A stretch of 38,559 nt of DNA from an uncultured Candidatus Saccharibacteria bacterium (GTDB taxonomy: Bacteria > Patescibacteriota > Minisyncoccia > UBA6257 > 2-01-FULL-56-20), in assembly GCA_964355785.1 (NCBI GenBank), contig CAYHEU010000002.1:1-38559 (forward strand). Direction: 5' to 3'. Positions 3,965-34,631 of the stretch are shown here, piece by piece. A program made the translations under genes and the position numbers. Each line of letters opens with the position of its first letter. The stretch's first letter is position 1. The notes under the pieces were generated by a model. That model ran no database searches. It was not told the DNA's origin and was given only the letters and a program-made list of their open reading frames with translations.

Positions 3965-5695
3965 ATGGACCCTCTTGAATTTCTCAAAGAATTAAAAAAA
4001 GCGGGACTTGTTGATGAAAGTACCGCGGTACAGCTTGGCCGCGAAGTTTCGCTCTCCGGAAGATCGCTCGAAGAGCTGGTCTATGAACGGCGTTTAATTG
4101 ACGACGAGAAAATCGCCGAGCTCAAAAGTTCGCTCCTCAAGATTCCCTATCAAAAGATCAATTTCGACGCGTTCGATAAGAGTCTCTTTGATCTTGTTCC
4201 CGAAGAGACCGCGCGGACCTATCTCGTTTCCCCGATTTCGAAAGAAGGAAACCTTCTTGTCGTGGGGATGGTGAACCCAGACGATTCGAAGGCTCAAGAA
4301 GCATTGAAGTTCGTGGGGCGGCAAAGCCGCGTGAATTTGGGAGTGTACGTGATATCCTACAGCGATTGGCAAGAAGTACTCCGGAAATATTCTCCGTATA
4401 AGACGCAGATCGAAGCTGCGGTAAAATCATTGAACTTGAAGGGCGGAGATGCGGCAAGGAAGCTCATAAAGCTCGAGGAGAGCATGAAGACAGTTGCCGA
4501 AGAAGCGCCGATCATACGTATTGTTGCCGACACGCTCCGCGAAGCGGTCCAAGCGCAGGCCTCCGACGTTCACATTGAGCCGCAGCAGAATTATCTGCGC
4601 GTAAGGTTTCGCGTCGACGGGAGTTTGCGGGAGGAGGCGTCGCTCCCAGTTGAGCTTGCACAGCCGGTCGTCTCGCGCGTCAAGGTCATCTCCAATCTGA
4701 AGATTGACGAATCGCGCGTTCCCCAGGACGGGAGATTCCGAGCGAAAATTTTTGACCGCGAGATTGATTTTCGCGTTTCGACATTTCCCACGCCGCTCGG
4801 AGAGAAGGTTGCAATTCGTATTCTCGATCCTACAACGGGACTCAAGAAACTCGATCAGCTTGGGCTTGTAGGAAGGAATCTTGAGCGGGTGAAAAAAGGG
4901 CTTGAGAAGCCCTATGGTCTCATACTCGTTACCGGGCCCACTGGTTCGGGAAAAACAACGACGATTTACGCGCTCCTCCAGATCTTGAATAAAGAAGACG
5001 TAAATATTGTGAGTCTTGAAGATCCGGTCGAGTACTCAATTTCGGGCCTGAACCAGTCGCAGGTTCGGCCGGAGATCGGTTACGACTTCGCTTCCGGACT
5101 CCGCGAAATTCTCCGCCAAGACCCGGACGTGATTTTGGTCGGTGAGATACGCGACAATGAAACCGCGGGACTTGCGATCCACGCGGCCTTAACCGGCCAT
5201 GTCGTGCTCTCAACGCTCCACACGAATAACGCGGTGGGGAGCATTCCGCGCCTCATTGATATGAAGGTGGAGCCGTTCCTCATTCCCTCGGCGATAAATC
5301 TTATAATTGCGCAGCGCCTTATCTCCGCGCTCTGCGAGAATTGCAAAAAGCCGGAAGAGGCCCCCCCCGCGGTTCAAAAGCTTGTGAAGAAAGCACTCTC
5401 GAATCTTCCTCCCGATACGCCGAATCCTTATAAGGAACCTTATAAGATATATCATGCACCGGGCTGTGACAGATGCCGCGGAAAGGGAGTTGCAGGGCGC
5501 GTTGCAGTCTACGAGTTTATCGAAATGACGCACGAGCTCGAGGAAATTGTAAATTCAGGATCACCGACCTCGCAGAAAATTTTGGAAGAAGGGAGGCGAC
5601 AGGGGATGATCACGCTCCGCGAAGACGGAGTTTTGAAGGCGCTCTCGGGACTTGTTCCGATTGAGGACGTTGTAAGAGAAACCGAAGACGCCTGA
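3965..5695 (+). CDS. pilB: Type IV pilus extension ATPase PilB (GspE family)
   Basis: N-terminal GspII_E-like domain, Walker A GPTGSGKTTT, Asp box, Walker B ILVGEIRD, His box TGHVVLSTLHTN, tetracysteine C..C...C..C. Confidence 0.92.
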   Translation: MDPLEFLKELKKAGLVDESTAVQLGREVSLSGRSLEELVYERRLIDDEKIAELKSSLLKIPYQKINFDAFDKSLFDLVPEETARTYLVSPISKEGNLLVVGMVNPDDSKAQEALKFVGRQSRVNLGVYVISYSDWQEVLRKYSPYKTQIEAAVKSLNLKGGDAARKLIKLEESMKTVAEEAPIIRIVADTLREAVQAQASDVHIEPQQNYLRVRFRVDGSLREEASLPVELAQPVVSRVKVISNLKIDESRVPQDGRFRAKIFDREIDFRVSTFPTPLGEKVAIRILDPTTGLKKLDQLGLVGRNLERVKKGLEKPYGLILVTGPTGSGKTTTIYALLQILNKEDVNIVSLEDPVEYSISGLNQSQVRPEIGYDFASGLREILRQDPDVILVGEIRDNETAGLAIHAALTGHVVLSTLHTNNAVGSIPRLIDMKVEPFLIPSAINLIIAQRLISALCENCKKPEEAPPAVQKLVKKALSNLPPDTPNPYKEPYKIYHAPGCDRCRGKGVAGRVAVYEFIEMTHELEEIVNSGSPTSQKILEEGRRQGMITLREDGVLKALSGLVPIEDVVRETEDA

Positions 5696-6839: not shown

Positions 6840-8051
6840 ATGAAATTCAAATACAACGCAAAAACGAAGGAAGGGCAGACGCAGGTTGGATTCGTGGAGT
6901 CGGGAAACCGCGAATCGGCCGCGAACATTTTGGCGAGCCACGATCTTTTCGTGTTGAGCATCGCGGAGGCGGAGAAAGTCCGCTGGTATGATAGAATCGC
7001 GAATTACTTCCGCGGCGTGAAACGGAAGGACATGGTGCTCTTCACGCGCCAGTTGGCCACGCTTCTTGAGGCGCGCATTTCATTGAACGATTCTTTGAAG
7101 ACCCTCGCAAAGCAGATTACGCACCCCGTGCTCAAGGAAACGGTTTTTCAAGTGTCGCAGGACATCGACGCCGGGCTCTCATTCTCGCAATCGCTTGAGC
7201 GGCAGGGCGCCGTTTTTTCCGATTTTTTCGTGAGCATGATTCGGTCGGCGGAGGTAACGGGAAATCTCGACGAGGTGACGAGTTTCCTTGCCGATTACTA
7301 TGAAAAGGATTTTATCTTGATCGGGAAAGCCCGTTCGGCGCTTATCTATCCGGCAGTCGTGATAGGCCTTTTCGCAATAGTGGTTATTTTGATGCTTACC
7401 ATGGTTATTCCCCAGCTCGCGCCGATCTTCTCACAGGCGGGCGTGAAGCTCCCCGTATTTACGAGATTTCTCGTGGCATCCGGGAGTTTTCTTGTTTCTT
7501 GGTGGCCGGCCGTGCTTTTTGGAATTGTCGGAGTCGTGATGATTGTGTTAAACTATCTTCAGACTCCGGAAGGGCGGGGTTTTTGGGATGACATGAAGCT
7601 CCGCCTCCCTATTTTAAGTCGTATTTATAGGCCTTTGAGCATCGCACGATTTTCAAATGCGGCCTCGATACTCTTAAGGGGGGGCGTTCCGGTGTCCCAA
7701 GCGATGGAGATCGTGAGTCACACTGTGGATAACGTCCTCTACCAGGATTTTCTCCACGAAGCGGCGGAGGCGGTGCGGCAAGGAGAGCCGCTCTCGACCG
7801 CGATTAGCCGGCACCCGGAATACTTCCCGTCGCTTGTCTCCCAGATGCTTGTGATAGGGGAAACGACGGGCCAACTTGATAAAATATTCATGAGAATAGC
7901 GACGTTCTACAGCCGCGAGGCGGATAACGTGATGAACAACATCGTGGATCTTATCCAGCCGCTTCTCATGATCGGCATCGGGGGGCTCGTAGGGTTGCTC
8001 TTTGCGTCAATCCTCCTTCCAATTTACGAGTTGACAACAAAGATCCAGTAA
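6840..8051 (+). CDS. pilC: Type IV pilus platform protein PilC (GspF family)
   Basis: Two GspF repeats (FTRQLATLLEARISL... and FSNAASILLRGGVPV...), three TM segments, ~400 aa. Confidence 0.9.
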   Translation: MKFKYNAKTKEGQTQVGFVESGNRESAANILASHDLFVLSIAEAEKVRWYDRIANYFRGVKRKDMVLFTRQLATLLEARISLNDSLKTLAKQITHPVLKETVFQVSQDIDAGLSFSQSLERQGAVFSDFFVSMIRSAEVTGNLDEVTSFLADYYEKDFILIGKARSALIYPAVVIGLFAIVVILMLTMVIPQLAPIFSQAGVKLPVFTRFLVASGSFLVSWWPAVLFGIVGVVMIVLNYLQTPEGRGFWDDMKLRLPILSRIYRPLSIARFSNAASILLRGGVPVSQAMEIVSHTVDNVLYQDFLHEAAEAVRQGEPLSTAISRHPEYFPSLVSQMLVIGETTGQLDKIFMRIATFYSREADNVMNNIVDLIQPLLMIGIGGLVGLLFASILLPIYELTTKIQ

Positions 8052-8081
8052 AACGAAAAGGTCGAAAACGAAATAAATTAA

Positions 8082-8594
8082 ATGAATAGAAAAGGTTTTA
8101 CTCTTATTGAGCTTCTGATCGTAATCGCCATCATCGGCATTTTGGCCTCCGTGGTCTTGGTCGGCATCGGTCCGGCGCAGCGGAGCGGCAGGGATGCCCG
8201 CCGCATCGCGGACCTCCGGCAGATTCAGAATGCGCTCGAGCTCTACAAGTCGGCGAACGGGCAGTATCCGGTGGGATCGGGAGATGTAGCAGCCCTTGGT
8301 CTCGGAATTGATATTTCGAAAGATCCGAGGGTGGGAGTCGGAGGCGCTGGCCCCGACTATCAATACCTTCCGGGCCTCGATTCGACTGGCGTAGTGACCG
8401 GCTATCTCTTGCTCGCGGTGCTTGAAGGCGATATTCCGGCATCAGCGAACAACGTAGCTGCGAGCCCCATGCAGCCGGACGGCGTTACCCTCTATGACTT
8501 TGGTCTTTTGACGGTCGGAACATTCACCGCCTGCGGCACAGATGGGTTTACGGGGGCCGGTGCTCCCTCGGACGTCTACTGCATACAGCTCTAA
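8082..8594 (+). CDS. Type IV major pilin (prepilin with short leader)
   Basis: MNRKG|FTLIELLIVIAIIGILASVV class III signal with Glu+5. The only pilin here with a short leader. Directly after pilC. Confidence 0.85.
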   Translation: MNRKGFTLIELLIVIAIIGILASVVLVGIGPAQRSGRDARRIADLRQIQNALELYKSANGQYPVGSGDVAALGLGIDISKDPRVGVGGAGPDYQYLPGLDSTGVVTGYLLLAVLEGDIPASANNVAASPMQPDGVTLYDFGLLTVGTFTACGTDGFTGAGAPSDVYCIQL

Positions 8595-8624
8595 GAAGTT
8601 CTATCTCCCCCTAGAGTTCGTATA

Positions 8625-9479
8625 ATGGCGATTTCTCTTTTTGTGTTCGGCGTAGCAGTCGGAAGCTTCCTGAATGTCTTGCGCGTCCGTTACGATCCGG
8701 AGAAATTCATCTTGAACAAGAATATTATTGGCGGCCGGTCGGTCTGTCCGAAGTGCCGGAATACGCTCAGATGGTTTGAGCTCGTTCCAGTCGTGAGCTT
8801 CGTTCTCCAGGCCGGCCGCTGTCGCCATTGCGGAGGTAAAATCAGCCCTCTCTACCCAATTGTTGAGATTGTGATGGGGCTGATTTTTGTTTTTGTGCCG
8901 TTCGGCCTCACGCCCGTGTTCGGCGTCCCAAGTCCTCTGTTCTACGCGCTTTCTCTCTTATGGATCTTGGTCGGCGTCGCCCTTTTTCTTATGGCGCTCA
9001 TTGACGCAAAAACAAACCTTATTCCGAACGAGATAGTTTTTTTGCTTGTCGTTTTGGGAATTTTGATCGCCGCCCTCTCCGGTTCACGCTTCGGATACAC
9101 CGAGGGGTCGTTTGCGGGGCACTATGCCTTCCTTCTCGGGATTCGCGAGAATATCTGGCTGAATCGCTTGTTCGCCTCCGCCGTCTCCGCGCTCTTTTTC
9201 GGTTTCGTGATCGCCGTAACCCGCGGGCGCGCGATGGGTATGGGGGACGCAAAGCTCGCCTTTGCGCTCGGGATGGTGTTCGGGTGGCCGGACGTGCTTC
9301 TCGTTGTCGCGGTCGCATTCATACTTGGAGCGCTCTTCGGGCTCGGCGCGATACTCTTGAGAAAAAAGACGATGAGAGGAACGGTGCCGTTCGGTCCGTT
9401 CCTTGCGATAGCTTCTTTCCTGGTTTTCTTTTTCGGATTTGAGATCGTTGATTTCTATTTCAAACTGTTCAATATTTAG
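8625..9479 (+). CDS. pilD: Prepilin peptidase / N-methyltransferase (A24 family) PilD
   Basis: CPKC...CRHC Zn motif in the N-terminal domain. Polytopic membrane protein with GMGDAKL and a second Asp-containing motif. Confidence 0.9.
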   Translation: MAISLFVFGVAVGSFLNVLRVRYDPEKFILNKNIIGGRSVCPKCRNTLRWFELVPVVSFVLQAGRCRHCGGKISPLYPIVEIVMGLIFVFVPFGLTPVFGVPSPLFYALSLLWILVGVALFLMALIDAKTNLIPNEIVFLLVVLGILIAALSGSRFGYTEGSFAGHYAFLLGIRENIWLNRLFASAVSALFFGFVIAVTRGRAMGMGDAKLAFALGMVFGWPDVLLVVAVAFILGALFGLGAILLRKKTMRGTVPFGPFLAIASFLVFFFGFEIVDFYFKLFNI

Positions 9480-9515
9480 AATTCTAAGGATAGGATTTAG
9501 GGTATAATAAAAGCT

Positions 9516-10148
9516 GTGCGGATAATAAAACCCCTAAATTCTAAATTCTATCCCCTAAATACTCACTCGGGTTTTACATTGATCGAGCTTCTTGTGGTTG
9601 TTGCGGTAACCCTTGTTGTCTCGAGTATCATGATTGTCTACGGGAACAAATCGCGGAGCCAGGCATCGCTCTCGATCGAGGCGGCGAAGATTGCGCAGGT
9701 GATCCTCCGCGCGAAATCGCTCGCAATCTCAACCTACAACATTCCTCCGATTCCCTGCGGCTACGGTATCAAGATAGATTATCCTAATAAAGAATATTCA
9801 CTTGTCCTCTACGATTATCTGCCGACCGAAACGGAATGCCTCGACATAAAAGACAGGCTTGTTCAAGAGCAGACGAGAATCGTGCCGCTTGCGGCGAGCG
9901 GGATTCCGGAAACCTATCGTTTAAGCGAAGGGGTTGTGTTTCCCACGCCGCCGAGCGGTCTTGTGGAATACGTGGTGTTCGTGCCACCGGATCCGAAGAC
10001 TCACATATTCCTGCGGCCGGGAGGAGGAGGCGGATCGCCGAATCCCGCGCTCACCTCCGGCTCCGGCGAGATAAAAATTGAAACACAAGATGGCTCCGTG
10101 GGTATCTCGATATTCATAACGCCATTCGGGCAACTGAGCTTCCGATGA
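9516..10148 (+). CDS. Prepilin-type minor pilin (long leader)
   Basis: GTG start. Leader MRIIKPLNSKFYPLNTHSG|FTLIELLVVVAV with Glu+5. Confidence 0.75.
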   Translation: MRIIKPLNSKFYPLNTHSGFTLIELLVVVAVTLVVSSIMIVYGNKSRSQASLSIEAAKIAQVILRAKSLAISTYNIPPIPCGYGIKIDYPNKEYSLVLYDYLPTETECLDIKDRLVQEQTRIVPLAASGIPETYRLSEGVVFPTPPSGLVEYVVFVPPDPKTHIFLRPGGGGGSPNPALTSGSGEIKIETQDGSVGISIFITPFGQLSFR

Positions 10149-10684
10149 ATCTTATCCTAAATTCTTTCCGCGTGAGGCGATACCCGGGCGTTTCAAGGAG
10201 GGGCATGATTATTGTGGAGCTCATGGTGGCGCTAAGCGTCTTAATGGTGGGGCTTATTGCGATACTTACGCTTTTGAACCGCTCGCTTGCGTTGACTCGC
10301 GCGATTACCGAAAATTACGCCGCAACGTACCTTGCAGCGGAAGGAGTGGAGGTCGTGAAAAATTTGGTGGACGGGAACCATCTTCAGGGAAAGATATGGG
10401 GCGACGGATTCGGCGGAGGCGGCACGTTTGAGGTTGTCTATGACAGCGCGACGCTGTCGTCCGATCTCGGAAGATTCTTGTCTTTTGATCCTACGACGCA
10501 TCTCTACGGCTATGCGGGCGGCGACATAACGCCCTTCAAGCGGCGAGTGGAAGTTTCGTTTTTCGATAATGACGGGGATGGCGTGGGGGAAGAGATGAAG
10601 GTGAACTCTGTGGTACTCTGGCAGGGCCCGGGCGGCCTTTTGCAAATAAACTTGGAAGACCATTTTTATAAATGGAGACTCTAA
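10145..10684 (+). CDS. Prepilin-type minor pilin
   Basis: 4-nt overlap with the previous gene. Leader MNLILNSFRVRRYPGVSRRG|MIIVELMVALSVLMVGL with Glu+5. Confidence 0.7.
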   Translation: MNLILNSFRVRRYPGVSRRGMIIVELMVALSVLMVGLIAILTLLNRSLALTRAITENYAATYLAAEGVEVVKNLVDGNHLQGKIWGDGFGGGGTFEVVYDSATLSSDLGRFLSFDPTTHLYGYAGGDITPFKRRVEVSFFDNDGDGVGEEMKVNSVVLWQGPGGLLQINLEDHFYKWRL

Positions 10685-10708
10685 GAATAGGGGTTAGGGA
10701 TTAGAATA

Positions 10709-11089
10709 TAGAATTTAGGGATATGAAAAATACAAAACTACATTCATTTAAAGATTTGAATGTGTGGCAAAAAATAGCTGATTTGTCGGTGCGCCTCTAT
10801 TCTGTGACGGAAAAATTTCCGCCTTCAGAGTTATATGGATTGGTAAACCAAATGAGGAGGGCGACAATTTCCGCAAGTTCTAATATTGCGGAGGGGTTCA
10901 AGAGATCCCACAAGAAGGAAAAGTTGCAATTCTACAGGATCGCATCAAGTTCTGTAACGGAGTTAGAGAGCCAAATCGAGATTACTTGCAAGCTTAAATT
11001 TTTAACCAATAATGATTATAGGGATCTTATGAATCGTGTTACGGAAGTTTCAAAAATGATTGAGGGGCTAATCAAATCCCTAAATTCTA
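10709..11089. repeat. Perfect 13-bp inverted repeat bracketing the four-helix-bundle coding part
   Basis: TAGAATTTAGGGA at 10709..10721 and its exact reverse complement TCCCTAAATTCTA at 11077..11089. Imperfect complementarity extends outward to ~10681 and ~11117. Confidence 0.8.
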
Positions 11090-11598
11090 AATCCTATTCC
11101 CTAAGTCCTGATTCAGGCTTCACTATGATCGAGCTCGTGGTGTCGCTTGGAATTTTTGTGGTTCTTGTGACGATCGCGGCCGGAGGTTTCGTGCAGGCGC
11201 TCCGAGCCCAGCGCCAGGTAGGGGCTTTGATCGCCGCGAACAGCAGCGTGAGTCTCACGATCGAGCAGCTCACGAGAGAAATCCGCACGGGGTTTGATTT
11301 CTCTCTCCTTGCGCCCGACGAACTTACCTTCACGAATGCCCGGCTTGAAGATGTTACCTATCGCCTGAATGTGGACGTGATCGAGCGGCGTGCGATCGAC
11401 AGCGCGGGGAACGATTCTGGTTTTCAGCCCATAACCGCCGATAACGTTTCGGTGAAATATCTCGGCTTTGTTTTCTTGGACGATCCAGTGAATTACCCGC
11501 CGCGCATTACGATTTCTCTCGGCATCTCGCCCACGGAAAGCGACGTAAAAGAAGTGATTTTGAAGCTCCAGACGACGGCGAGCGCGCGGTTCCTTTAG
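10723..11598 (+). CDS. Single ORF fusing a 23S-rRNA-IVS-type four-helix-bundle protein (codons 1-~118) to a prepilin-type minor pilin
   Basis: The N-terminal part has the family hallmarks FKDLNVWQK...SSNIAEGF...ASSSVTELESQ. It continues in frame into ...SLNSKSYSLSPDSG|FTMIELVVSLGIFVV. An internal ATG at 11056 would give a conventional 20-aa leader. Confidence 0.7.
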   Translation: MKNTKLHSFKDLNVWQKIADLSVRLYSVTEKFPPSELYGLVNQMRRATISASSNIAEGFKRSHKKEKLQFYRIASSSVTELESQIEITCKLKFLTNNDYRDLMNRVTEVSKMIEGLIKSLNSKSYSLSPDSGFTMIELVVSLGIFVVLVTIAAGGFVQALRAQRQVGALIAANSSVSLTIEQLTREIRTGFDFSLLAPDELTFTNARLEDVTYRLNVDVIERRAIDSAGNDSGFQPITADNVSVKYLGFVFLDDPVNYPPRITISLGISPTESDVKEVILKLQTTASARFL

Positions 11599-11710
11599 TG
11601 AATCCTGGTCCGAGGCGGGCTTGTGTGTATATCTCCTCTGATTAATTTGCTATAATTTAGGAAACATAAAACAGGACTGCGACGGCAGAAAAGGCAGCAT
11701 AAATAATCTC

Positions 11711-12229
11711 GTGAAAAAAACACTTATTCTTCTTATTGTAGTAATCGCGGGATTCGGAATGGTGTATCTCTTGCTTACCTCCGGTCTCGTTCGCCGGGAC
11801 GAAAACGTTCTCCCTCCGGAAGTGAAACTTACGGAATACGAAAAAGTTCTCGAAACCACCCCGGTTTCGGTTCTCGTGGGAACGATCGTGCGAACCGGGG
11901 AAGAACTTGTGGTTGATGTCCCCGCTATCCTTGGCGTTGCGACCCCGGAAAATTCTCCGAGAAGGACGAAGATGATCGCGATTATCGAGGGAACGCGGGT
12001 GCTCGCGCGCGCCGTAAAGAGCAGCGCGGAGCTCGATCGCGAACTTCGTGAGTACACGCGAAAAACCTCTTCTCTCCGGGGAGAGCCACCCCTTCCTTAT
12101 ACGATTAAGACAATCGACAAAGTCGATCTAAAGGTCGGTGATGTGGTAATGATTCGTGCGGCCGCGGGAGTCGACGTACGGGACGAGAAAATAATCGAGG
12201 CCGCAGAGATCATACGGGAAAATCAATAA
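11711..12229 (+). CDS. Hypothetical secreted/membrane-anchored protein
   Basis: GTG start, N-terminal hydrophobic anchor LILLIVVIAGFGMVYLLL. No recognisable domain. Confidence 0.5.
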   Translation: MKKTLILLIVVIAGFGMVYLLLTSGLVRRDENVLPPEVKLTEYEKVLETTPVSVLVGTIVRTGEELVVDVPAILGVATPENSPRRTKMIAIIEGTRVLARAVKSSAELDRELREYTRKTSSLRGEPPLPYTIKTIDKVDLKVGDVVMIRAAAGVDVRDEKIIEAAEIIRENQ

Positions 12230-12233
12230 CAGC

Positions 12234-13022
12234 ATGAAAAAAGAACTCAAGAATTTCATCAAAGAAGTGGGAACTTTTACCGTTGCACTCACGCTCGCAT
12301 TCGTAATATTTCTGGGAATCGTGGTAGTGCGAGGAGCATTCGGGGAGCCGACTGGTTCGCCGTCTGATGCCTCGAGTAATGCGCCTTCTCCCATTAACGT
12401 GAATTTGGGAACGCAAACGAAGCAGGGAAAAATAGTTGCTGAAGATTTTTTCAGTCTTACTGCGATCGCTATTGATCCGGGACTCGGATGGATGTCGCAA
12501 ATCGTACAGAGAATAAAAGATGTGCGGGAAACGTATCACTTGGAAGCCGCGGGAGCGAACAACCTTACCGTGCCGTTCGATCTTCCTACCTTTTACCGGT
12601 TGTGCGGCGACAGTGACGGTTGCCGAGTAGTGCTCGGAGCTCGCAATGTTTATACCACCTTGCCCGCTGGCTTCGGCCCCGACGTTATTTATCTCAAGGG
12701 TCCTTATGTGATGAGCGTAGGGAGTCCCTTTGCTGGCGGTTTAGGCCGCGGCTGGAGCTTGTTTGCAGCCGGACTTCCTACTTCTCTCGTGTCCATAAAC
12801 CAAGGTATCGATTTGAACGGCACGGTTCAATACCCGGTTGGCGGTCCCTCTGTGGGTATTCTCTTCGGCTGTCAGTTTACAGATGGAGAATTTGGCTTGC
12901 CGAGCGGCGGATCGTCTCCCAGTTTTATCCAGAGCGATGCGCTGGAAGGTTTTGGCCTTCGTAATGCCGTCGTGAGCACCTACAGCAACAGCAAAATTTG
13001 TTCTTTGGATATCGAAGATTAA
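12234..13022 (+). CDS. Hypothetical secreted protein sharing an N-terminal module with the next three genes
   Basis: N-terminal hydrophobic segment, then AFGEPTGSP...PINVNLGTQTKQGKIVAEDFF. C-terminal part is Gly-rich and unrelated to the Cys-rich paralogues. Confidence 0.6.
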   Translation: MKKELKNFIKEVGTFTVALTLAFVIFLGIVVVRGAFGEPTGSPSDASSNAPSPINVNLGTQTKQGKIVAEDFFSLTAIAIDPGLGWMSQIVQRIKDVRETYHLEAAGANNLTVPFDLPTFYRLCGDSDGCRVVLGARNVYTTLPAGFGPDVIYLKGPYVMSVGSPFAGGLGRGWSLFAAGLPTSLVSINQGIDLNGTVQYPVGGPSVGILFGCQFTDGEFGLPSGGSSPSFIQSDALEGFGLRNAVVSTYSNSKICSLDIED

Positions 13023-17715: not shown

Positions 17716-17764
17716 AGTTAGGGGTGAGAATTTAGAATATAGGGATTAGGGTATAATTAAGGAA

Positions 17765-18325
17765 ATGGGTTTGCTAAATCCTGAATCCTACACCCTAAAT
17801 TCTCGGGCATCGGGGCAGGCCCCGCACCGAGCCGAGCGCTTCGTTTTCTTCAACGCCATGAGTCGAATGAGGCGTTACTTTTCCTCCATTGCTGTCTTGG
17901 GCAAACAAACGTTGTTTAGGAGAAAACGCCGGAGCGTTGCAGTGCTCGACCCGCCTGCCTTAGTACGAGTACGGCGGGCAGGTCTGGTGTCGGGGCAAGC
18001 AATGATCCTTACCGTTTTGGCGCTCGGTGGGACGATTTTGGGTGCTACCACGATCGCCGGTCTCCTTATGCTCTATCAAATTCGGCAGACGGCCGATCTC
18101 GCAAATTCCGCGAAGGCGATTTTTGCGGCGGATGCCGGCATTGAGTGGGCTCTCTACGATTTTACGTGCAACCTTGATCCGGGGGATTCAATCGTCTGCG
18201 TGCCGCAGCCTACGATGACGAACGGGAGCTTGCTTTCCGTAACCGTTACTCCCGGTCCGGGCGGTTCGATAAAATCAGTAGGATCGTCGGGAAAATCGAG
18301 CCGCGCATTCCTTCTCTCGCTCTAA
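17765..18325 (+). CDS. Pilin-like protein with a 60-codon in-frame insertion after the leader
   Basis: MGLLNPESYTLNSRASGQ..., then an Arg-rich non-protein-like 60 aa, then SGQAMILTVLALGGTILGATTIAGLLMLY hydrophobic helix. Last gene of the pilus block. Confidence 0.55.
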   Translation: MGLLNPESYTLNSRASGQAPHRAERFVFFNAMSRMRRYFSSIAVLGKQTLFRRKRRSVAVLDPPALVRVRRAGLVSGQAMILTVLALGGTILGATTIAGLLMLYQIRQTADLANSAKAIFAADAGIEWALYDFTCNLDPGDSIVCVPQPTMTNGSLLSVTVTPGPGGSIKSVGSSGKSSRAFLLSL

Positions 18326-20684: not shown

Positions 20685-20761
20685 GCGGGCGTAGCTTAGC
20701 GGTCTAAAGCGCTGCCCTGTCACGGCAGAGATCGTGGGTTCAAATCCCATCGCCCGCGCCA
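20685..20761 (+). tRNA. tRNA-Asp (anticodon GTC), CCA encoded
   Basis: Acceptor GCGGGCG/CGCCCGC, D-arm TAGCTTAGCGGTCTAAAGC, anticodon stem CTGCC/GGCAG with loop CTGTCAC, T-arm GTGGG-TTCAAAT-CCCAT, discriminator G, then CCA. Confidence 0.9.
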
Positions 20762-22375
20762 TTTGAGACGAATCGAGGCAAGAGCCTCTTCTCTTGTAGA
20801 ATCCAACGGCCTTTTCCACGGTTCTAACTTTTTGTATTCCGTTTCGAGTTCTGGATAAGCATTTCCGATTGGTATGAACCATTCGTACGGAGAAATATTG
20901 AGTTTTCCGTCTTTAAGGACTGAGTTCTGACTGAACCCCTTAAGTATTTCCCGTTTTACCTCTAGAGTACCGAAAAGAAAGGCTTTATGAGCGTATAGAG
21001 CGAAGTTAAATGTCTTTTCAGTCAGTTCTAGCCATTTCTCGGCTCTCGCCTCGGTATCGCGTAAATTAGCCTTGAGTTGAAGTATTTTCTTCTCTAGCTC
21101 ACCCTTCTCTTGGAGAAAAAAATTATCGCCAATCATTTCTCGGTATCGCATTCTGATGAGTTCGTCGAGTTCGCTTTGAGTCTTCACGAGCGTCCTGTTT
21201 TGCATTTCGTAGATTTTGGTCCTATCTTCAATTTCTTTATCGTTCTGTTCGTTAAGAACTTCTAGCGCCCAATCTCTAAACTCGGGCAGAATCGTATATT
21301 TTTCAATTTCGTTTTCAATTTGCAGCTCGATATTTTCCAGCGAAACGGTTTTCCTCTGAGAACAATTAACTTCCACTTTTTTGCGGGTGCAGAAGTAATA
21401 CGTAAAACTTTTGAGCTTATTATCTCTTTTAATCAGTTTAATCTTCTCTATGGCGGTAATCATGCAATTACATTCACCACAGTGCATGCATCCCGTGAAA
21501 GCGAATATGTGTTTCTTGGGCCTAGGCTTACCCTTTCTTCCTAGTAAGACTTGAACTCTGTCAAATTCTTCAAGTGTTACAATGGGGTCATGTTTGCCTT
21601 CGTATAGGTTCCCCTTGTATTCGATAAGACCCGCATAGAATGGATTGGTAAAGATTCTATAAAGGGTGCTTCGAGACATTGGTTTGCCACCTTTCTTTTT
21701 GGTTTGTCTAGTTCTGAATCCCCATTGATTGTTAAGAATTTCAAGAATTTGTGGTGGCGTGTAGTTTCCCGTGAGCATTAAGTCCCACGCCTTGCGGATT
21801 AAATGAAAACGCTCTGGGTCATTCAGTATATAGTTTTCCCCTCGTAGTTCTGTTTTTGTGTTGAGATACCCCGAAGGAGCCGAGCCAGGAAGCCACCCCT
21901 TTTGCCGCTTTGTGTTTAGGCCTCGTTTTACCGCAACACTGCTGTCGTCCGAGTATTTTTTGGCCATTCCAAACTCAAGTTGAAGCATGAATTTGTCCTC
22001 GGGTGTGTTGCGGTAAACTCGCTGCAGAGTTTTAACTTCTACAAGTTTACTTTCATCCATTGCGGTGACTATCCACCCTCCATCAAAGGCATTTCGAGCC
22101 AACCTATTTGGATGCCAAACCAAGAGCCCTCCTGCCTTTCCCGACTCTATTTGTTGCATAACGTGGTTGAAGATAGGCCTACCGCGCTTAAAGGCACTCT
22201 GGCTTTCACCTTTCTCGCTGCCGCCGAATCTTTCAATAACCTTGAGGTGTTCACGTTTTTCTATAGCTGCTAGCTCCCTCTCTTGGTCATCAAGGGAGAG
22301 CATCTGTCTGTCTTCGCTCTCGGTGCTTTTACGGCAGTACAGAATATATTTAATTTTCTCGCTTTCTTGTTTCAT
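20720..22375 (-). CDS. Large serine recombinase (integrase)
   Basis: N-terminal resolvase domain YCRKSTESEDRQMLSLDDQ, recombinase domain, Zn ribbon CMHCGECNCMITA...C, long coiled-coil. ATG at 22375 is preferred over the track TTG at 22462. The last 13 codons and the stop lie antisense in tRNA-Asp. Confidence 0.88.
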   Translation of the reverse strand: MKQESEKIKYILYCRKSTESEDRQMLSLDDQERELAAIEKREHLKVIERFGGSEKGESQSAFKRGRPIFNHVMQQIESGKAGGLLVWHPNRLARNAFDGGWIVTAMDESKLVEVKTLQRVYRNTPEDKFMLQLEFGMAKKYSDDSSVAVKRGLNTKRQKGWLPGSAPSGYLNTKTELRGENYILNDPERFHLIRKAWDLMLTGNYTPPQILEILNNQWGFRTRQTKKKGGKPMSRSTLYRIFTNPFYAGLIEYKGNLYEGKHDPIVTLEEFDRVQVLLGRKGKPRPKKHIFAFTGCMHCGECNCMITAIEKIKLIKRDNKLKSFTYYFCTRKKVEVNCSQRKTVSLENIELQIENEIEKYTILPEFRDWALEVLNEQNDKEIEDRTKIYEMQNRTLVKTQSELDELIRMRYREMIGDNFFLQEKGELEKKILQLKANLRDTEARAEKWLELTEKTFNFALYAHKAFLFGTLEVKREILKGFSQNSVLKDGKLNISPYEWFIPIGNAYPELETEYKKLEPWKRPLDSTREEALASIRLKWRGRWDLNPRSLP

Positions 22376-22540
22376 AAACTCAAAGGGCGGTTCTGGTTGA
22401 CCCAGCCGCTTGCCCACACGGGTAGCCTTCTGGCAGAACCGCCCTTTCAGGGTAGAAGGCAATAAAAATCCGTGTGGATTTGCTTCGGCGGGTCAACGAT
22501 TCAATTGTACCACTTTTTCTCAACATATAAAAGCATCTAA

Positions 22541-22939
22541 TCACTTTAGGCGAGTTATTTTTGCGATAATATAATTCACCAAATCTTGGTTGGACATACC
22601 TGCGAATTTCATCTGAGTCTTATCTTCAAAATCCTCAAAGGTTTGAAGCCACAACTTAACTTCTTGTGCGCTCCCTGTCTTCAGTATTTTCTTATAAAGA
22701 CTCAAAACGACCCTAGGTGTTTTCTCGCGCGCCCATTTCGTTAATTCTCGTTTAACTTGAGAGTTGAAATCGACCCTTTGTTTCCAATCGGAAAGCGTTG
22801 CGTTATCAACCTTTAACTTACTTGCCAATTCTTTTTGGGTCTTCGGTTTCCTAAGTGGGGCTGGAGTCGCAATCCACCTAATAAATTCCCCATATTCGTT
22901 TGCCTTCAAGGGTATACTATTTTTGGCTTGTTTTGGCAT
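22541..22939 (-). CDS. HTH DNA-binding protein (terminase-small-subunit-like / regulator)
   Basis: TQKELASKLKVDNATLSDWK helix-turn-helix in a small basic protein next to replication and integration genes. Confidence 0.5.
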   Translation of the reverse strand: MPKQAKNSIPLKANEYGEFIRWIATPAPLRKPKTQKELASKLKVDNATLSDWKQRVDFNSQVKRELTKWAREKTPRVVLSLYKKILKTGSAQEVKLWLQTFEDFEDKTQMKFAGMSNQDLVNYIIAKITRLK

Positions 22940-22943
22940 ATTT

Positions 22944-23516
22944 TTAGTAGTTCTTAGGAAACGAAAATTTTTTAGACAGTCCCTTCCTCAGTGTTGCATA
23001 ATCTTTACTAAAAAGAGGAAATCCTCCTTTCTTTTCTTTATTTAATCTTTCTTTACTTTCTTTCGGTGACGGTCCTTGTCTGTAAATAAGAGATTTTCGA
23101 TTGACTTCAGTTGGTGCGCTGTTCACTTTTCCGTTAGTGTGCCACCTACTTTTTGGTAGGTGCTTTGCTAACAATCTAGTAAGCAGTGTATTAAATTTTT
23201 CTTGGTCAAATAATTTACTTCGATTCACCTTCCACTCATCTACGTTCACGTTTACCGACACCAAATCGTCTCCTTGATTCCACTCAATCACGCGACGACC
23301 CGCTAGAGTTTCCAACTCTTCCCGAATATCGCTTTTATAAATTCCCGCAAGTTGAAAATCTGTAAGTCTGATTTTTGCTGAATTTCTTTGTTTGCAACCA
23401 TGGGTTAGCCTAAGAACGAATAAAATAATTCTTCGCTGTCTATCTGTAAAGTTGTAGACGTATAGGCTGTCCAAGAGGGAGTTTATAATTTTTGTGAATC
23501 CCTTATTTCTAGTCAT
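22944..23516 (-). CDS. Replication-protein-O-like (phage replisome organiser N-terminal winged helix)
   Basis: FTDRQRRIILFVLRLTHGCKQRNSAKIRLTDFQLAGIYKSDIREELETLAGRRVIEW matches the pattern of the lambda-O N-terminal family as I remember it. Confidence 0.5.
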   Translation of the reverse strand: MTRNKGFTKIINSLLDSLYVYNFTDRQRRIILFVLRLTHGCKQRNSAKIRLTDFQLAGIYKSDIREELETLAGRRVIEWNQGDDLVSVNVNVDEWKVNRSKLFDQEKFNTLLTRLLAKHLPKSRWHTNGKVNSAPTEVNRKSLIYRQGPSPKESKERLNKEKKGGFPLFSKDYATLRKGLSKKFSFPKNY

Positions 23517-23520
23517 CTTA

Positions 23521-23709
23521 TTACGTTGTTGCCTTACGGCGTTTTTGCAGACTTTTGTATTCTTCTTGTGTCATCGGGCTAAACACCAATTTCATCAAAT
23601 TCAGCAAAGCCACCCCTTTTTCCAAGGCCTCTTTCTCGTTTATGTCTTTCCCAAACTGTTTTTTGTATAATGCCTGGAATTTTTTGATTTGAGCCTGCGA
23701 TAACATCAC
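23521..23709 (-). CDS. Small hypothetical protein (62 aa)
   Basis: ORF is tightly packed (4-nt gap) upstream of the replication-like gene on the same strand. No recognisable domain. Confidence 0.4.
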   Translation of the reverse strand: MMLSQAQIKKFQALYKKQFGKDINEKEALEKGVALLNLMKLVFSPMTQEEYKSLQKRRKATT

Positions 23710-23822
23710 CTTTCAGATTACACAGTACTCATAGCTTAAAAAATGCGGAAAAACTTTCTTGCAAAGATAAAAATACCGCAGATTAGAGCGGCGTTTTTTA
23801 GTTATCCACTTTTTAAGTTTTT

Positions 23823-24572
23823 TTAAGCTGCCTTTTTGTCTTTATTCAACCTTGTTTGAAACGCCTTCTCGCTCATAGGGATGACTTCAATATTCGGCCT
23901 TATATACCCATCCTCAATTTTTAGAATCTTAGTCACTCTGTGTCCGAATTTTGAATAGAGCTTGCATTGTTTGTTGGAATTGAAATAGTCGAAAGCTCCT
24001 TTGTGCTTGGATGCCTCAAGGTCTTCTTCCCCCGAGGCAACCCGAAATAGAAAAGACCAGTAATCTTTGTATCCAACGTCGAAAAAGTTTTTGTAGTCGT
24101 CGTTTATAACAACCTTAATACGTCTACCCTTGGGTTCTACGAGTATTAGTTTCTCGATTGCCTCTGATTTATACTTCTTAATCCTTTTCGTACCATATGC
24201 AATCTGGTAGGCCTTGTTGAAATCCTCTAAGCTGGAGACCCTAATTATTAAGTTTTCGTATATATCGGCGGTAGGTATGTTTAGCGCAACGGCGGTTGCG
24301 GTCAAAAGAAGCGATGGAAAATTGCTATTCCCAGTCCGTAGCATTTCTTCGTTGAAAACTTTAAAAATTGGTTTGTTACAGCGGACATTCGCTGTCTTTA
24401 GCGCCATTCGAACCCCTTGATAATCCCACCCCTGCCTCTTCAGTAGTAAGAGAGGGAGCTTTACAATCTTCCTTTCTGCATCAAAATAATCAATCTCTAT
24501 TTGGTCCGAGATAAGCTGAAGCATCCTTTGCATCCGATGAGAGTTGGTTTCAGAGGAGGTAACGTTTTGCAT
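23823..24572 (-). CDS. Hypothetical protein, first gene of the minus-strand module
   Basis: 249-aa ORF with typical composition, preceded by a perfect 23-bp palindrome. No recognisable domain. Confidence 0.5.
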   Translation of the reverse strand: MQNVTSSETNSHRMQRMLQLISDQIEIDYFDAERKIVKLPLLLLKRQGWDYQGVRMALKTANVRCNKPIFKVFNEEMLRTGNSNFPSLLLTATAVALNIPTADIYENLIIRVSSLEDFNKAYQIAYGTKRIKKYKSEAIEKLILVEPKGRRIKVVINDDYKNFFDVGYKDYWSFLFRVASGEEDLEASKHKGAFDYFNSNKQCKLYSKFGHRVTKILKIEDGYIRPNIEVIPMSEKAFQTRLNKDKKAA

Positions 24573-24601: not shown

Positions 24602-24861
24602 CCACGTGATGTTCAATGCCTTGCCTGACAAAGCCGTTCTTTAAAGCTTCATAAAAAAGTGGTTAAATTAGATTGAAAATTAAATATGAGCCTAAACTGC
24701 GCCAGAATGGCGTGGCAGGGCGTAAAAAAGCCCCACAAAGGTATTAAGCTCCTCGTCAGAGCACCTTTGTGGGTCATATGGGGAAACCTATATGGGTGGC
24801 CGCAAGGCCATCGCTGGCGGGGAGCTTTGTATTTAAAGGAGTCCTCCTCTAGCTCCAAGTT

Positions 24862-25860
24862 ATGGAAAGAGAAAGTTCCGAGAATAAAAATAAATCATTA
24901 CAGACAAGAGACTGGGTTGTTAGCAAGAATATTGTTGCGGGAGTTTCCCTGGTAATCGTTGTGGCAGTCTCAATTACTGCCTTAAAGATAAGCACAAACG
25001 AGCAGAAAGGAACTGATGGTGGATTTGCGCTAACAGAAGAAGAAATTACTCGAATATCAAGGTCCGTCGTTGCTGTTCAGTGTTTGTATGATGAGAACGA
25101 TGACGGACAGTGGGACGATGCTATTTATGGCTCGGGAATATATATCGGCGAAGCCTTTATCAGCAGAGAAAGAAGTAAAACCTTTGGGGAAAAATTTACT
25201 CTCTATGATGGATATGTCCTTACTAATGCACACGTCGCACAACTTAAAAGAAAATATAAAGAAAAGTATGACTATAATTTTTGCTCCATTGAAATCTCGC
25301 TACCAGAGTTAGAGCCGTCGCGACGAGGAATTTTCCCGTATGTATACGATGACAAGGCCCATTTTCTGTATGATGGTAAAGTTGACATTGCGCTCTTAAG
25401 ATTTAGTACGGTGCTTCACGGGGAAGAAGTAGTAAATGAGACAAGTAAATTGGTTAACTTCGACCAAAATCTTTTGCGCAACAACATACTTCCGTCTTAC
25501 CCGTTTTGTTCGTATGAAAGAGTTGTTGGGAAAAGAGTTTATATTTTTGGTTATCCAAGCAGTGCCTTTGAATTTGAAAAAATAGAAAGTAGTTTTTTAG
25601 AAGAGCCAACAACAATCATTGCTCAACAGAATCTAATTATTTCCGAAGGCATCATTAGTGGAGTAAACAGTAGCGGAAACTATTACACGACAGCTAGGAT
25701 TGATACGGGGAATTCTGGCGGATTGGCAATCTCAAAATCAGGCGGAGAAATTTGCTTATTGGGAGTTCCGACATGGGTAAGCGAAGGCGAATACGAGAAT
25801 CTAGGTGTTATACAGCCATTTTCTAAACTATTTACTGTTCTCCAGTCGTCTCTTGAATGA
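24862..25860 (+). CDS. Membrane-anchored trypsin-like (S1/chymotrypsin-fold) serine protease
   Basis: N-terminal TM (IVAGVSLVIVVAVSITAL). Catalytic triad contexts VLTNAHVA, VDIALLRF, DTGNSGGLA. Confidence 0.8.
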   Translation: MERESSENKNKSLQTRDWVVSKNIVAGVSLVIVVAVSITALKISTNEQKGTDGGFALTEEEITRISRSVVAVQCLYDENDDGQWDDAIYGSGIYIGEAFISRERSKTFGEKFTLYDGYVLTNAHVAQLKRKYKEKYDYNFCSIEISLPELEPSRRGIFPYVYDDKAHFLYDGKVDIALLRFSTVLHGEEVVNETSKLVNFDQNLLRNNILPSYPFCSYERVVGKRVYIFGYPSSAFEFEKIESSFLEEPTTIIAQQNLIISEGIISGVNSSGNYYTTARIDTGNSGGLAISKSGGEICLLGVPTWVSEGEYENLGVIQPFSKLFTVLQSSLE

Positions 25861-34215: not shown

Positions 34216-34560
34216 TTATTCTCCGCCAGAGGCGCCCGCCTGCCGGACGGGCAGGGATCCGCCTTTGGCGGAGAAAACCGCAGGGATCTTGAGAAATCCG
34301 CCTTGTTCTTCGGGAAAGCTTTCTCTTCCGGCACCGCGATTAGAGTTCTCGCCTTCGGCGTCATCTCGGAATACATTCTTGAGCGACGTTCCGCCGCTCA
34401 TCGGCTCTACTCCCCGCGTGTCAAGTTCCTGGAGCTCTTTGAAGTAGCCGACGATTTTTTGAAGATCCTTCAGAATTTTCTCTTCCTCACGAGTGTTGAG
34501 CTCAATGCGCGTGAGTTCCGTAAGATGTTTCAATGTTTTTTTGTTGATTGGCGAAGCCAT
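34216..34560 (-). CDS. gatC: Glu/Asp-tRNA amidotransferase subunit C with repeat-encoded C-terminal tail
   Basis: MASPINKKTLKHLTELTRIEL...LQELDT...FLKIPAVF is GatC-like. The extra tail SAKGGSLPVRQAGASGGE is encoded by palindromic repeats. Alternative start at 34578. Confidence 0.75.
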   Translation of the reverse strand: MASPINKKTLKHLTELTRIELNTREEEKILKDLQKIVGYFKELQELDTRGVEPMSGGTSLKNVFRDDAEGENSNRGAGRESFPEEQGGFLKIPAVFSAKGGSLPVRQAGASGGE

Positions 34561-34566
34561 AAGAAT

Positions 34567-34631
34567 AGGACTTAGCAATTAGAATTTAGGACTTTCCGCC
34601 AAAGGCGGACCAGCCTTGGGCTGGAGGGCTT
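34567..34631. repeat. Intergenic copy of the composite palindromic repeat (between murD and gatC)
   Basis: AGGACTTAG...AGAATTTAGGACTT, then palindrome TCCGCCAAAGGCGGA (34595..34609), then palindrome CCAGCC-TTG-GGCTGG (34610..34624). Confidence 0.7.

Follow-up and report, generated by a model that had tools for sequence, protein, structure and literature searches.

The window analysed here is a 38,559-nucleotide (38.5-kb) stretch of contig CAYHEU010000002.1 from an uncultured Candidatus Saccharibacteria bacterium, and it holds a type IV pilus cluster encoding PilM, PilB, PilT, PilC, a major pilin, the prepilin peptidase PilD and three minor pilins. The third of the minor pilin genes downstream of PilD, with its ATG 1.2 kb after the peptidase gene, is one uninterrupted open reading frame (ORF, 10723..11598) of 291 amino acids (aa). 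Its N-terminal part is a four-helix bundle (aa 9-120) of the type found within 23S rRNA intervening sequences (IVSs), followed by a disordered linker and then by a prepilin starting at G/FTMIEL, where the slash marks the predicted cleavage site. The bundle is bracketed by inverted arms built of tandem heptamers, and the resulting cassette occupies the entire gap between the stop codon of the preceding minor pilin gene (10682-10684) and the class III signal of the pilin that follows.

Both halves of the ORF were recognised by profile searches. The bundle matched PF05635 in Pfam at aa 10-114 (E 3e-34, 117.8 bits against a cutoff of 33.8) and TIGR02436, 'four helix bundle protein', in NCBIfam (112.8 bits against a cutoff of 24), and contains the NIAEG motif. 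The N_methyl prepilin motif was found at aa 130-152 in Pfam, and the IV_pilin_GFxxxE domain/TIGR02532 in NCBIfam, with the junction reading ...SLNSKSYSLSPDSG/FTMIELVV. The original prediction, which was made from the letters of the sequence and described a bundle with NIAEG running in one ORF directly into FTMIELVV, was confirmed by these matches. The bundle has no stop codon of its own, the next stop coming only at 11598, while its distant relatives are proteins of 117-138 aa with a stop.

The AlphaFold model consists of two confident domains, the four helices and a pilin fold, with the residues between them (123-130) at a predicted local distance difference test score (pLDDT) below 50. The bundle helices span residues 9-29, 38-60, 64-90 and 96-120 with pLDDT of about 86-93. 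Foldseek matched the bundle to XCC0516 (2gsc), with a TM score of 0.91 and a root-mean-square deviation of 1.1 Å, and phmmer against the PDB gave the same structure at E 2e-16. In the pilin half, a long alpha1 helix and a beta sheet are modelled, and Foldseek matched it to chain 5bw0_C of the XcpV-XcpW minor pseudopilin complex. Orthologues of this half are annotated as PulJ/GspJ family; in the 13 aligned, F133 is invariant, E137 is at least 90% conserved and a C-terminal motif is conserved too. The hydrophobic segment after the G/F-x-x-x-E motif reaches a Kyte-Doolittle value of 2.68. The bundle fold also matches BT_0352 (2rld) and bAvd, the accessory protein of diversity-generating retroelements (4dwl and 8ub7, TM 0.82-0.89, with a weak PF22296 match). 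Identity with Avd was rejected, with NF033474 at 42.5 bits against a cutoff of 80 and no reverse transcriptase domain among the window ORFs scanned, some small ORFs lying outside that scan.

A perfect 13-bp inverted repeat (TAGAATTTAGGGA at 10709-10721 and TCCCTAAATTCTA at 11077-11089) had been predicted to bracket the bundle, with imperfect pairing outward. This was borne out, since the 13 bp are the core of a 38-nt inverted repeat between the two arms (Table 1), 84% complementary, with an ungapped score of 23 against 10.5 for the best of 30 shuffles. The left-arm core begins 5 nt past the stop of the preceding minor pilin gene and overlaps the bundle start codon. When the RNA of 10670-11130 was folded, the arms formed a terminal stem of about 45 bp and the minimum free energy (MFE) was −135.9 kcal/mol (z = −5.6), with none of 100 shuffles as stable. 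The GC content falls from about 0.55 in the flanks to 0.33-0.40 over 10650-11100. Each arm consists of four tandem heptamers in three variants (TTAGGGA TTAGAAT ATAGAAT TTAGGGA), a TAGAAT heptamer standing 8 nt 5' of ATG 10723. The right arm codes for the low-confidence linker and leader ...IKSLNSKSYSLSPDSG and has TAA in both other frames, only the pilin frame being open.

Table 1. Positions of the cassette, the fused gene and related features in the window.
Feature	Position	Strand	Basis or context
Major pilin	8082..8594		
Prepilin peptidase PilD (A24 family)	8625..9479	+	PF06750, PF01478
ORF-less palindrome copy between pilD and minor pilin gene 9516..10148	about 9477..9563	+	repeat and heptamer matches
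Right-arm remnant CCTAAATTCT in leader of minor pilin gene 10145..10684 (MNLILNSF...)	10151..10168	+	repeat matches
Left arm	10673..10726	+	inverted-repeat search (core 10689-10726), MFE terminal stem, heptamer clusters
Four-helix bundle coding sequence, aa 1-120	10723..11082	+	PF05635, TIGR02436, 2gsc similarity, AlphaFold
In-frame ATG, Met112 in SKMIEGLIKS; candidate internal start giving a 21-aa leader	11056..11058	+	sequence
Right arm, reverse-complement heptamers	11070..11122 (core 11072-11109)	+	inverted repeat, MFE stem
Predicted prepilin peptidase site Gly132/Phe133, then Glu137	11116..11121	+	N_methyl, IV_pilin_GFxxxE; putative cleavage
Mature GspJ/PulJ/ComGF-like minor pilin, aa 133-291	11119..11598	+	orthologue names, weak ComGF match, model
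Second ORF-less palindrome copy, at start of PilX-like ORF 17765..18325	about 17719..17804	+	repeat and heptamer matches
Solo right-arm-like heptamer block GTCCTAAATTCTAATTGCTAAGTCCTATTCTT	34560-34595	minus	abuts ATG of gatC-like ORF upstream of gatA

Arm pairing was compared among related loci, which are given L or P numbers where they have to be told apart. Flank duplexes of −40 to −70 kcal/mol were present in all loci of the same bundle clade. In the orthologue L094, both arms have switched to GTGAG-type heptamers and the leader becomes an unrelated LTSHSSSPTPRSG, yet the pairing is still −63.8 kcal/mol. Since the two arms changed together and still pair, the constraint on them acts on the nucleic acid and not on the peptide. 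Concerted change of this kind is visible only in L094 and in comparisons between clades. Pairing of own against foreign arms in 34 loci (−62.6 against −57.1 kcal/mol) did not discriminate compensatory evolution, because all arms of the clade share the same heptamers, and the spacer of 0 to 25 nt between left arm and ATG stood in the way of an anchored arm alignment for pair counting.

The arrangement of a terminal stem, a PF05635 ORF in its loop and Coxiella-like heptamers supports the earlier proposal of an IVS-type stem-plus-ORF architecture outside rRNA. As in the 23S rRNA IVSs of Coxiella burnetii and Leptospira, whose product is called S23p, tandem heptamers stand beside the start codon, the ORF lies in sense orientation in the host transcript and the element is richer in AT than its surroundings. 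The Coxiella IVS carries tandem heptamers (GACAGAT) before the S23p start in a copy number that varies between strains, and RNase III cleaves its stem at the first of these repeats (PMC4990558). Therefore, the cassettes have the heptamer-stem design in common with true rRNA IVSs. The Coxiella ORF is reported to be decaying and untranslated. The element described here differs in its host, which is a protein-coding operon between two pilin genes and not helix 25 or 45, and in its ORF, which is stop-less, fused to the host protein and under purifying selection. An Rfam scan of the window gave no rRNA, only a LOOT RNA and tRNA, and a 23S/16S motif search of 159 related loci gave no clustered 23S motifs and three isolated single-motif matches.

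The same bundle clade was found in about 45 related Patescibacteria loci. In roughly 40 of them the bundle is stop-less and in frame with minor pilins, PilX-like proteins or surface proteins with a Sec signal. The protein search gave full-length orthologous fusions with 41-57% identity and 97-100% query coverage; among 1.8 billion cluster representatives searched there were 61 matches at E ≤ 1e-30, and the full-length fusion to the same GspJ-like pilin is represented by 13 or more separate clusters at 50% identity. The in-frame fusion was present in 13 of 15 close genome loci and in 27 of 29 informative close metagenome loci. With duplicates removed, it was present in 32 of 34, and the architecture comes from dozens of independent assemblies of different studies.

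In addition to the GspJ-like pilin, the stop-less bundle is joined to at least three further classes of exported protein. The same bundle, 60-68% identical and always ending ...GLIKSLNSKSYILNS, precedes PilX-like proteins and proteins of 420-590 aa that show a hydrophobic segment, then a small-x-small site and, in some, weak cohesin matches. A transmembrane-like 17-aa window (Kyte-Doolittle mean of at least 1.68) starts 11-31 residues after the bundle in all 33 fused ORFs tested. Only two copies in the clade stand alone; they lie ahead of the genes for shikimate kinase and leucyl-tRNA synthetase, from which stop codons separate them. Other bundle subfamilies, whose heptamers differ, have pilin partners as well (L022, P0128, P0199, P0206).

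Some of these loci show features of their own. In the Sec-type fusions (L003, L007, L013 and others; for example L007 6398-6429), the best-pairing right arm lies 30-45 nt past the bundle and codes for part of the hydrophobic core of the signal peptide (..STFYILNPS..), so that the T-rich heptamer arrays contribute to the signal peptide itself. In L006 (3027-3044), an in-frame TAA stands at bundle codon 6 within a run of A (MENKK, stop, KSFKDL...), while the bundle-PilX-like ORF has no other defect and the layout is otherwise that of L086; this stop may reflect an error of sequencing, a null allele or the use of a downstream start. L094 contains a second PF05635 gene (4036-4422) between the first and second minor pilin genes; it belongs to another subfamily and stands alone with 128 aa and a stop, and the pilin after it has the leader MLHVSRFKFQDRKGQ/. 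These cassettes seem to favour the minor pilin operon as a site.

Substitution patterns were in agreement with a functional bundle. The ratio of nonsynonymous to synonymous substitution rates (dN/dS) of the bundle was 0.03-0.20 in the 25 closest pairs, with synonymous sites near saturation between copies overall, which points to a working protein under purifying selection. Since a selected bundle that lacks a stop codon would be producible only as an N-terminal fusion, the 132-aa leader named among the possible outcomes in the original prediction would have to exist as a translation product. The other two outcomes, internal initiation at ATG 11056 and RNA processing, are possible as additions to it. 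The order of pilin, PilD, minor pilins and fused gene is conserved in the window, L085 and L094. In the bundle tree, the window copy groups with the L085 and L094 orthologues, and elsewhere pilin, PilX-like and stand-alone partners are mixed; the overall pattern is one of old inheritance with occasional moves.

The origin of the cassette was traced by relatives in which it is missing or reduced. In L160, the closest pilin relative without a bundle, the operon is the same and the site is a short, ordinary intergenic region free of heptamers. L161 (P0133), an internally deleted copy, still has its arms and its pilin, with the first 13 codons and the last helix of the bundle, and one frame is kept throughout. 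From the unoccupied site and the deleted one, the cassette is insertional in origin. Further in-frame deletions (P0016; L102 2380-2523) retain the bundle ATG and have lost Met112. No duplication is evident at the cassette borders, and the arms are interchangeable among loci, as judged from the own and foreign pairing given above, so that recombination would be another possible means of spread. The earlier idea of a cassette that landed in a protein-coding leader therefore stands as far as insertion is concerned, while the singular recent landing it implied does not, in view of the 13 or more clusters, the conserved synteny, the saturated synonymous sites and the further exported partner classes. 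A stable domain fusion had been the anticipated counter-case, with orthologues carrying the domain and no flanking repeats; the orthologues carry the domain with flanking repeats.

Shortened elements are present in the window as well. It contains three palindrome copies, one of them with the bundle ORF, and two remnants; the tandem heptamers and the two ORF-less copies had gone unnoticed in the original prediction. The copy after pilD contains TATAAT and a GTG start in its loop, and its right arm codes for the leader MRIIKPLNSKFYPLNTHSG/FTLIEL. Its similarity to the cassette right-arm region extends over 36 nt (89% identity), and the end of its loop (..ATAATAAAACCCC) is homologous to the final bundle codons (..CTAATCAAATCCC), with IIKP-LNSK against LIKS-LNSK. 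Given this homology, the ORF-less copies look like internal-deletion derivatives. The right arm of the second copy codes for the beginning of the PilX-like ORF, MGLLNPESYTLNSRASG.... In both copies TATAAT stands exactly 7 nt before the start codon (9503-9516 and 17752-17767). With this spacing of TATAAT or TAGAAT and most window genes lacking a Shine-Dalgarno (SD) sequence, leaderless transcripts starting within the hairpin loops are possible. With z values of −0.9 and −0.7, the folds of the two ORF-less hairpins do not surpass those of shuffles and lend no support to an RNA structure in these copies. The solo block near gatC has no matching left arm and is preceded by two small GC hairpins.

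Hairpins without an ORF are also found in the related loci, where 17 were counted. Some code for pilin leaders, as in L081, whose copy starts MLLKSLNSKSY...A/FTLIEL, and some lie in frame within cohesin-like ORFs. The leaders of several orthologous pilins show a 7-residue periodicity that comes from other heptamer types. In L004 (5575-5641), L089 (5595-5655) and L102 (2082-2142), the in-frame hairpins of cohesin-like surface-protein ORFs stand before a conserved ESPYLL.DQ C-terminal module. A size difference between L089 and L090 was considered as gain or loss of a hairpin and rejected, being an unrelated 108-nt indel.

The reading we favour, with about an even chance of being right, is that of an old and conserved IVS-type cassette that is tolerated within cleavable signal sequences, with PilD freeing the pilin from a 132-aa leader. 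Since the bundle is stop-less and the pilin frame is the sole open one in the right arm, a ribosome starting at ATG 10723 would make a 291-aa precursor. Like other prepilin leaders, the bundle and the arm-encoded linker would not leave the cytoplasm, and the hydrophobic alpha1-N helix of the pilin would insert in the membrane. The leader side of known prepilins remains cytoplasmic and the cut is made on the cytoplasmic face (PMC4471445), so PilD would cut after Gly132, setting free a normal mature pilin and, as a piece of 132 aa, the bundle with its leader. The passenger would be harmless to the host protein since the N-terminal signal sequence is discarded, and the same logic would apply to the relatives with Sec signals. 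Tolerance of the cassette at this site would rest on that loss of the signal sequence, and it would explain the missing stop, the exclusively exported partners, the stops before genes for cytoplasmic proteins and the drifting linker peptide. The freed bundle may serve either the element or the cell. Support for the fusion also comes from the in-frame deletions in P0016, P0133/L161 and L102 2380-2523, all of which retain the bundle ATG.

The pilin part of such a precursor would resemble the long-leader type IV prepilins (type IVb, Flp) in Gly-1, Phe+1, Glu+5, a hydrophobic alpha1-N and an A24 peptidase encoded in the cluster. The leader is different: known prepilin leaders have 6-26 aa and are hydrophilic and unstructured (PMC4471445), whereas here it would count 132 aa from ATG 10723, with a folded domain, and 21 aa only if ATG 11056 were used.

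Several points weigh against this reading. There is no precedent for a folded 118-aa domain ahead of a class III signal; such a domain might block PilD or keep the pilin from inserting in the membrane, and the bundle is probably oligomeric, 2gsc having been crystallised with five chains. ATG 10723 lies inside the predicted stem. The start sites cannot be ranked because genes here mostly lack an SD sequence, and a comparison of ATG 10723 with ATG 11056 in this respect was uninformative. The conserved in-frame ATG 11056 could yield a normal 21-aa leader, so that the assembled pilin need not derive from the fusion. The many fused loci descend from a small number of ancestral events in the bundle tree and are not independent trials. 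In addition, the deleted derivatives came from a protein search, which is biased to in-frame cases.

It is rather unlikely that the assembled pilin comes from ATG 11056 with the leader MIEGLIKSLNSKSYSLSPDSG, read-through from 10723 making only the bundle or a by-product. Such a leader falls in the known range (PMC4471445), the ATG has an A-rich context (preceded by tttcaaaa) typical of starts in an SD-poor genome, and the ORF-less copies begin translation at the homologous position (L081 as given above; 9516 in the window, MRIIKPLNSKFY). Met112 is nearly invariant (at least 90%) in the alignment of orthologous fusions, but it is a family feature that is also common in stand-alone relatives (...SKMITVLIRKLK, then a stop), and it is absent from some fusions (SKLISGLTRS in L094, SRLLDGIIRS in L015). 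The deletions in P0016 and L102 2380-2523 have lost it and yet keep the bundle ATG in frame. Moreover, the fusion would persist even with an internal start, since the selected bundle would lack a stop all the same. Separation at the RNA level, in which RNase III would cut the arm stem, free a bundle mRNA and alter the stability or translation of the flanking pilin cistrons, was judged improbable. The stability of the predicted stem and of the flank duplexes in all clade loci is in its favour, and so is the RNase III cut in the stem of the Coxiella IVS, which has the same ORF family and heptamers (PMC4990558). In 57 of 63 stand-alone cassettes from other phyla both neighbours lie on the same strand at median gaps of 71 and 59 nt, hence inside transcripts, and a scan of 7900-12300 for sigma-70 promoters and terminators gave nothing above shuffles and no match in the arms. 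A cut in the right arm would nevertheless strip the pilin of its start codon and leave the bundle mRNA without a stop, which is destructive for both products, and RNA-level separation cannot explain why the stop is missing only where the downstream protein is exported. Moreover, the ORF-less hairpins are no more stable than shuffles, and with TATAAT or TAGAAT 7-8 nt before the starts some transcripts may begin in the loop and lack the left arm.

A similarly low probability is given to a domesticated pro-domain, that is, a bundle with an export-linked host function in holding, oligomerising or timing the release of pilins and surface proteins. The strong purifying selection, the long vertical retention with conserved synteny and the restriction of partners to the pilus and surface-protein classes fit this explanation. 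On the other side, many orthologous pilins are bundle-less with short leaders and L160 has an empty site, internally deleted copies persist with intact pilins, and relatives of about 45% identity with the same arms stand in unrelated operons of many phyla. Phase variation, in which a 7-nt slippage in the right arm would toggle between the fusion (ON) and a short bundle ending at an arm TAA (pilin OFF), is less probable still. In its favour, slippage by one 7-nt unit in these tandem heptamer arms would shift the frame, and TAA stands in the other two frames; heptamer copy number differs between Coxiella strains (PMC4990558), surface proteins are the usual targets of phase variation, and linker lengths differ among orthologues (+21 nt in L087, for example). 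The heptamer units in the window are, however, imperfect, which disfavours slippage, and in about 45 loci no out-of-frame allele was seen beside a gene for an exported protein, in consensus assemblies that cannot show minority alleles. A recent accidental insertion inactivating the pilin gene, or an artefact of assembly or gene calling, is hardly credible. The lowered GC content and the unusual gene model would be expected of it, but it is already contradicted by the same architecture in dozens of independent assemblies, by intact ORFs with dN/dS well below 1 and by a conserved pilin half with its invariant F133 and C-terminal motif.

Beyond the fused clade, nearly all PF05635 genes of the related loci L016-L079 and L110-L159, from Omnitrophota, Planctomycetota, Atribacterota, Saccharibacteria and others, stand between inverted arms of tandem heptamers. 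Of 79 loci belonging to many phyla, 70 have the gene within inverted repeats better than all shuffles. Across 92 related loci, periodicity at lags 7 and 14 was present in both flanks and absent inside the ORF. The heptamer unit differs by protein clade (TCGTATA, AAGTTGT, TAGTATG and others), and the GC content of the cassettes is generally below that of their flanks. The '23S rRNA IVS protein' family thus consists mostly of heptamer-flanked cassettes co-oriented in ordinary operons, and the rRNA copies look like a special case. More tentatively, with somewhat less than an even chance, PF05635 cassettes would be widespread transcript-embedded elements of which one Patescibacteria lineage went from between genes to inside them, dropping the stop and living in cleavable signal sequences, with a peptidase (prepilin peptidase in the case of pilins, signal peptidase I in that of Sec substrates) removing the passenger.

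Two known kinds of palindromic element can be compared with these cassettes. Rickettsia palindromic elements (RPEs) are reportedly in-frame palindromic repeats within protein genes, described by Ogata et al. in 2000; they are not known to contain a gene, heptamer units or a link to signal sequences. The likeness is that palindromes survive inside ORFs and are read in frame in tolerant segments (9516 and 17765 in the window; L081; L004, L089 and L102), and the difference is that the full-length element here carries a selected protein domain. Transcribed, hairpin-forming miniature inverted-repeat transposable elements such as the Correia elements of Neisseria are short inverted-repeat elements by gene starts that can bring promoter-like boxes and form mRNA hairpins. 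The ORF-less copies are similar in lying near gene starts with TATAAT in the loop, while the heptamer-array arms and the bundle gene of the full-length copies are different, and no transposase or target-site duplication was identified here. The literature search gave no paper connecting PF05635 or four-helix-bundle proteins to either pilins or signal peptides; the element is of a known kind in a context undescribed in the searchable literature.

If the more tentative reading of the PF05635 cassettes is true, the removal of the passenger by a peptidase would be the protein-level counterpart of the removal of the same kind of element from 23S rRNA by RNase III, and the folded class III leader of 130 aa would be about five times longer than any described. 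The substrates of prepilin peptidases, with leaders of 6-26 residues, would come to include one with a folded domain of 130 residues. If the precursor is made and cut, this would be a new way for an element to persist in essential or useful genes, hidden in a part of the protein that is discarded. The long-open role of IVS-encoded S23p proteins becomes testable in loci with clear selection on the protein. In dozens of pilins and surface proteins of Patescibacteria, the present label is only 'four helix bundle protein', which masks their real nature.

Two other features of the window lie outside the pilus cluster. The LOOT RNA motif (Rfam RF03000, 84.5 bits, full length) at 24689-24812 on the plus strand stands just 5' of a trypsin-like peptidase gene (24862..25860). 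At 20685-24572, a large serine recombinase gene (20720..22462, minus strand) overlaps the 3' end of a tRNA-Asp and is followed by a phage RepO-like gene (22944..23516, minus strand); this region is probably an integrated element at tRNA-Asp.

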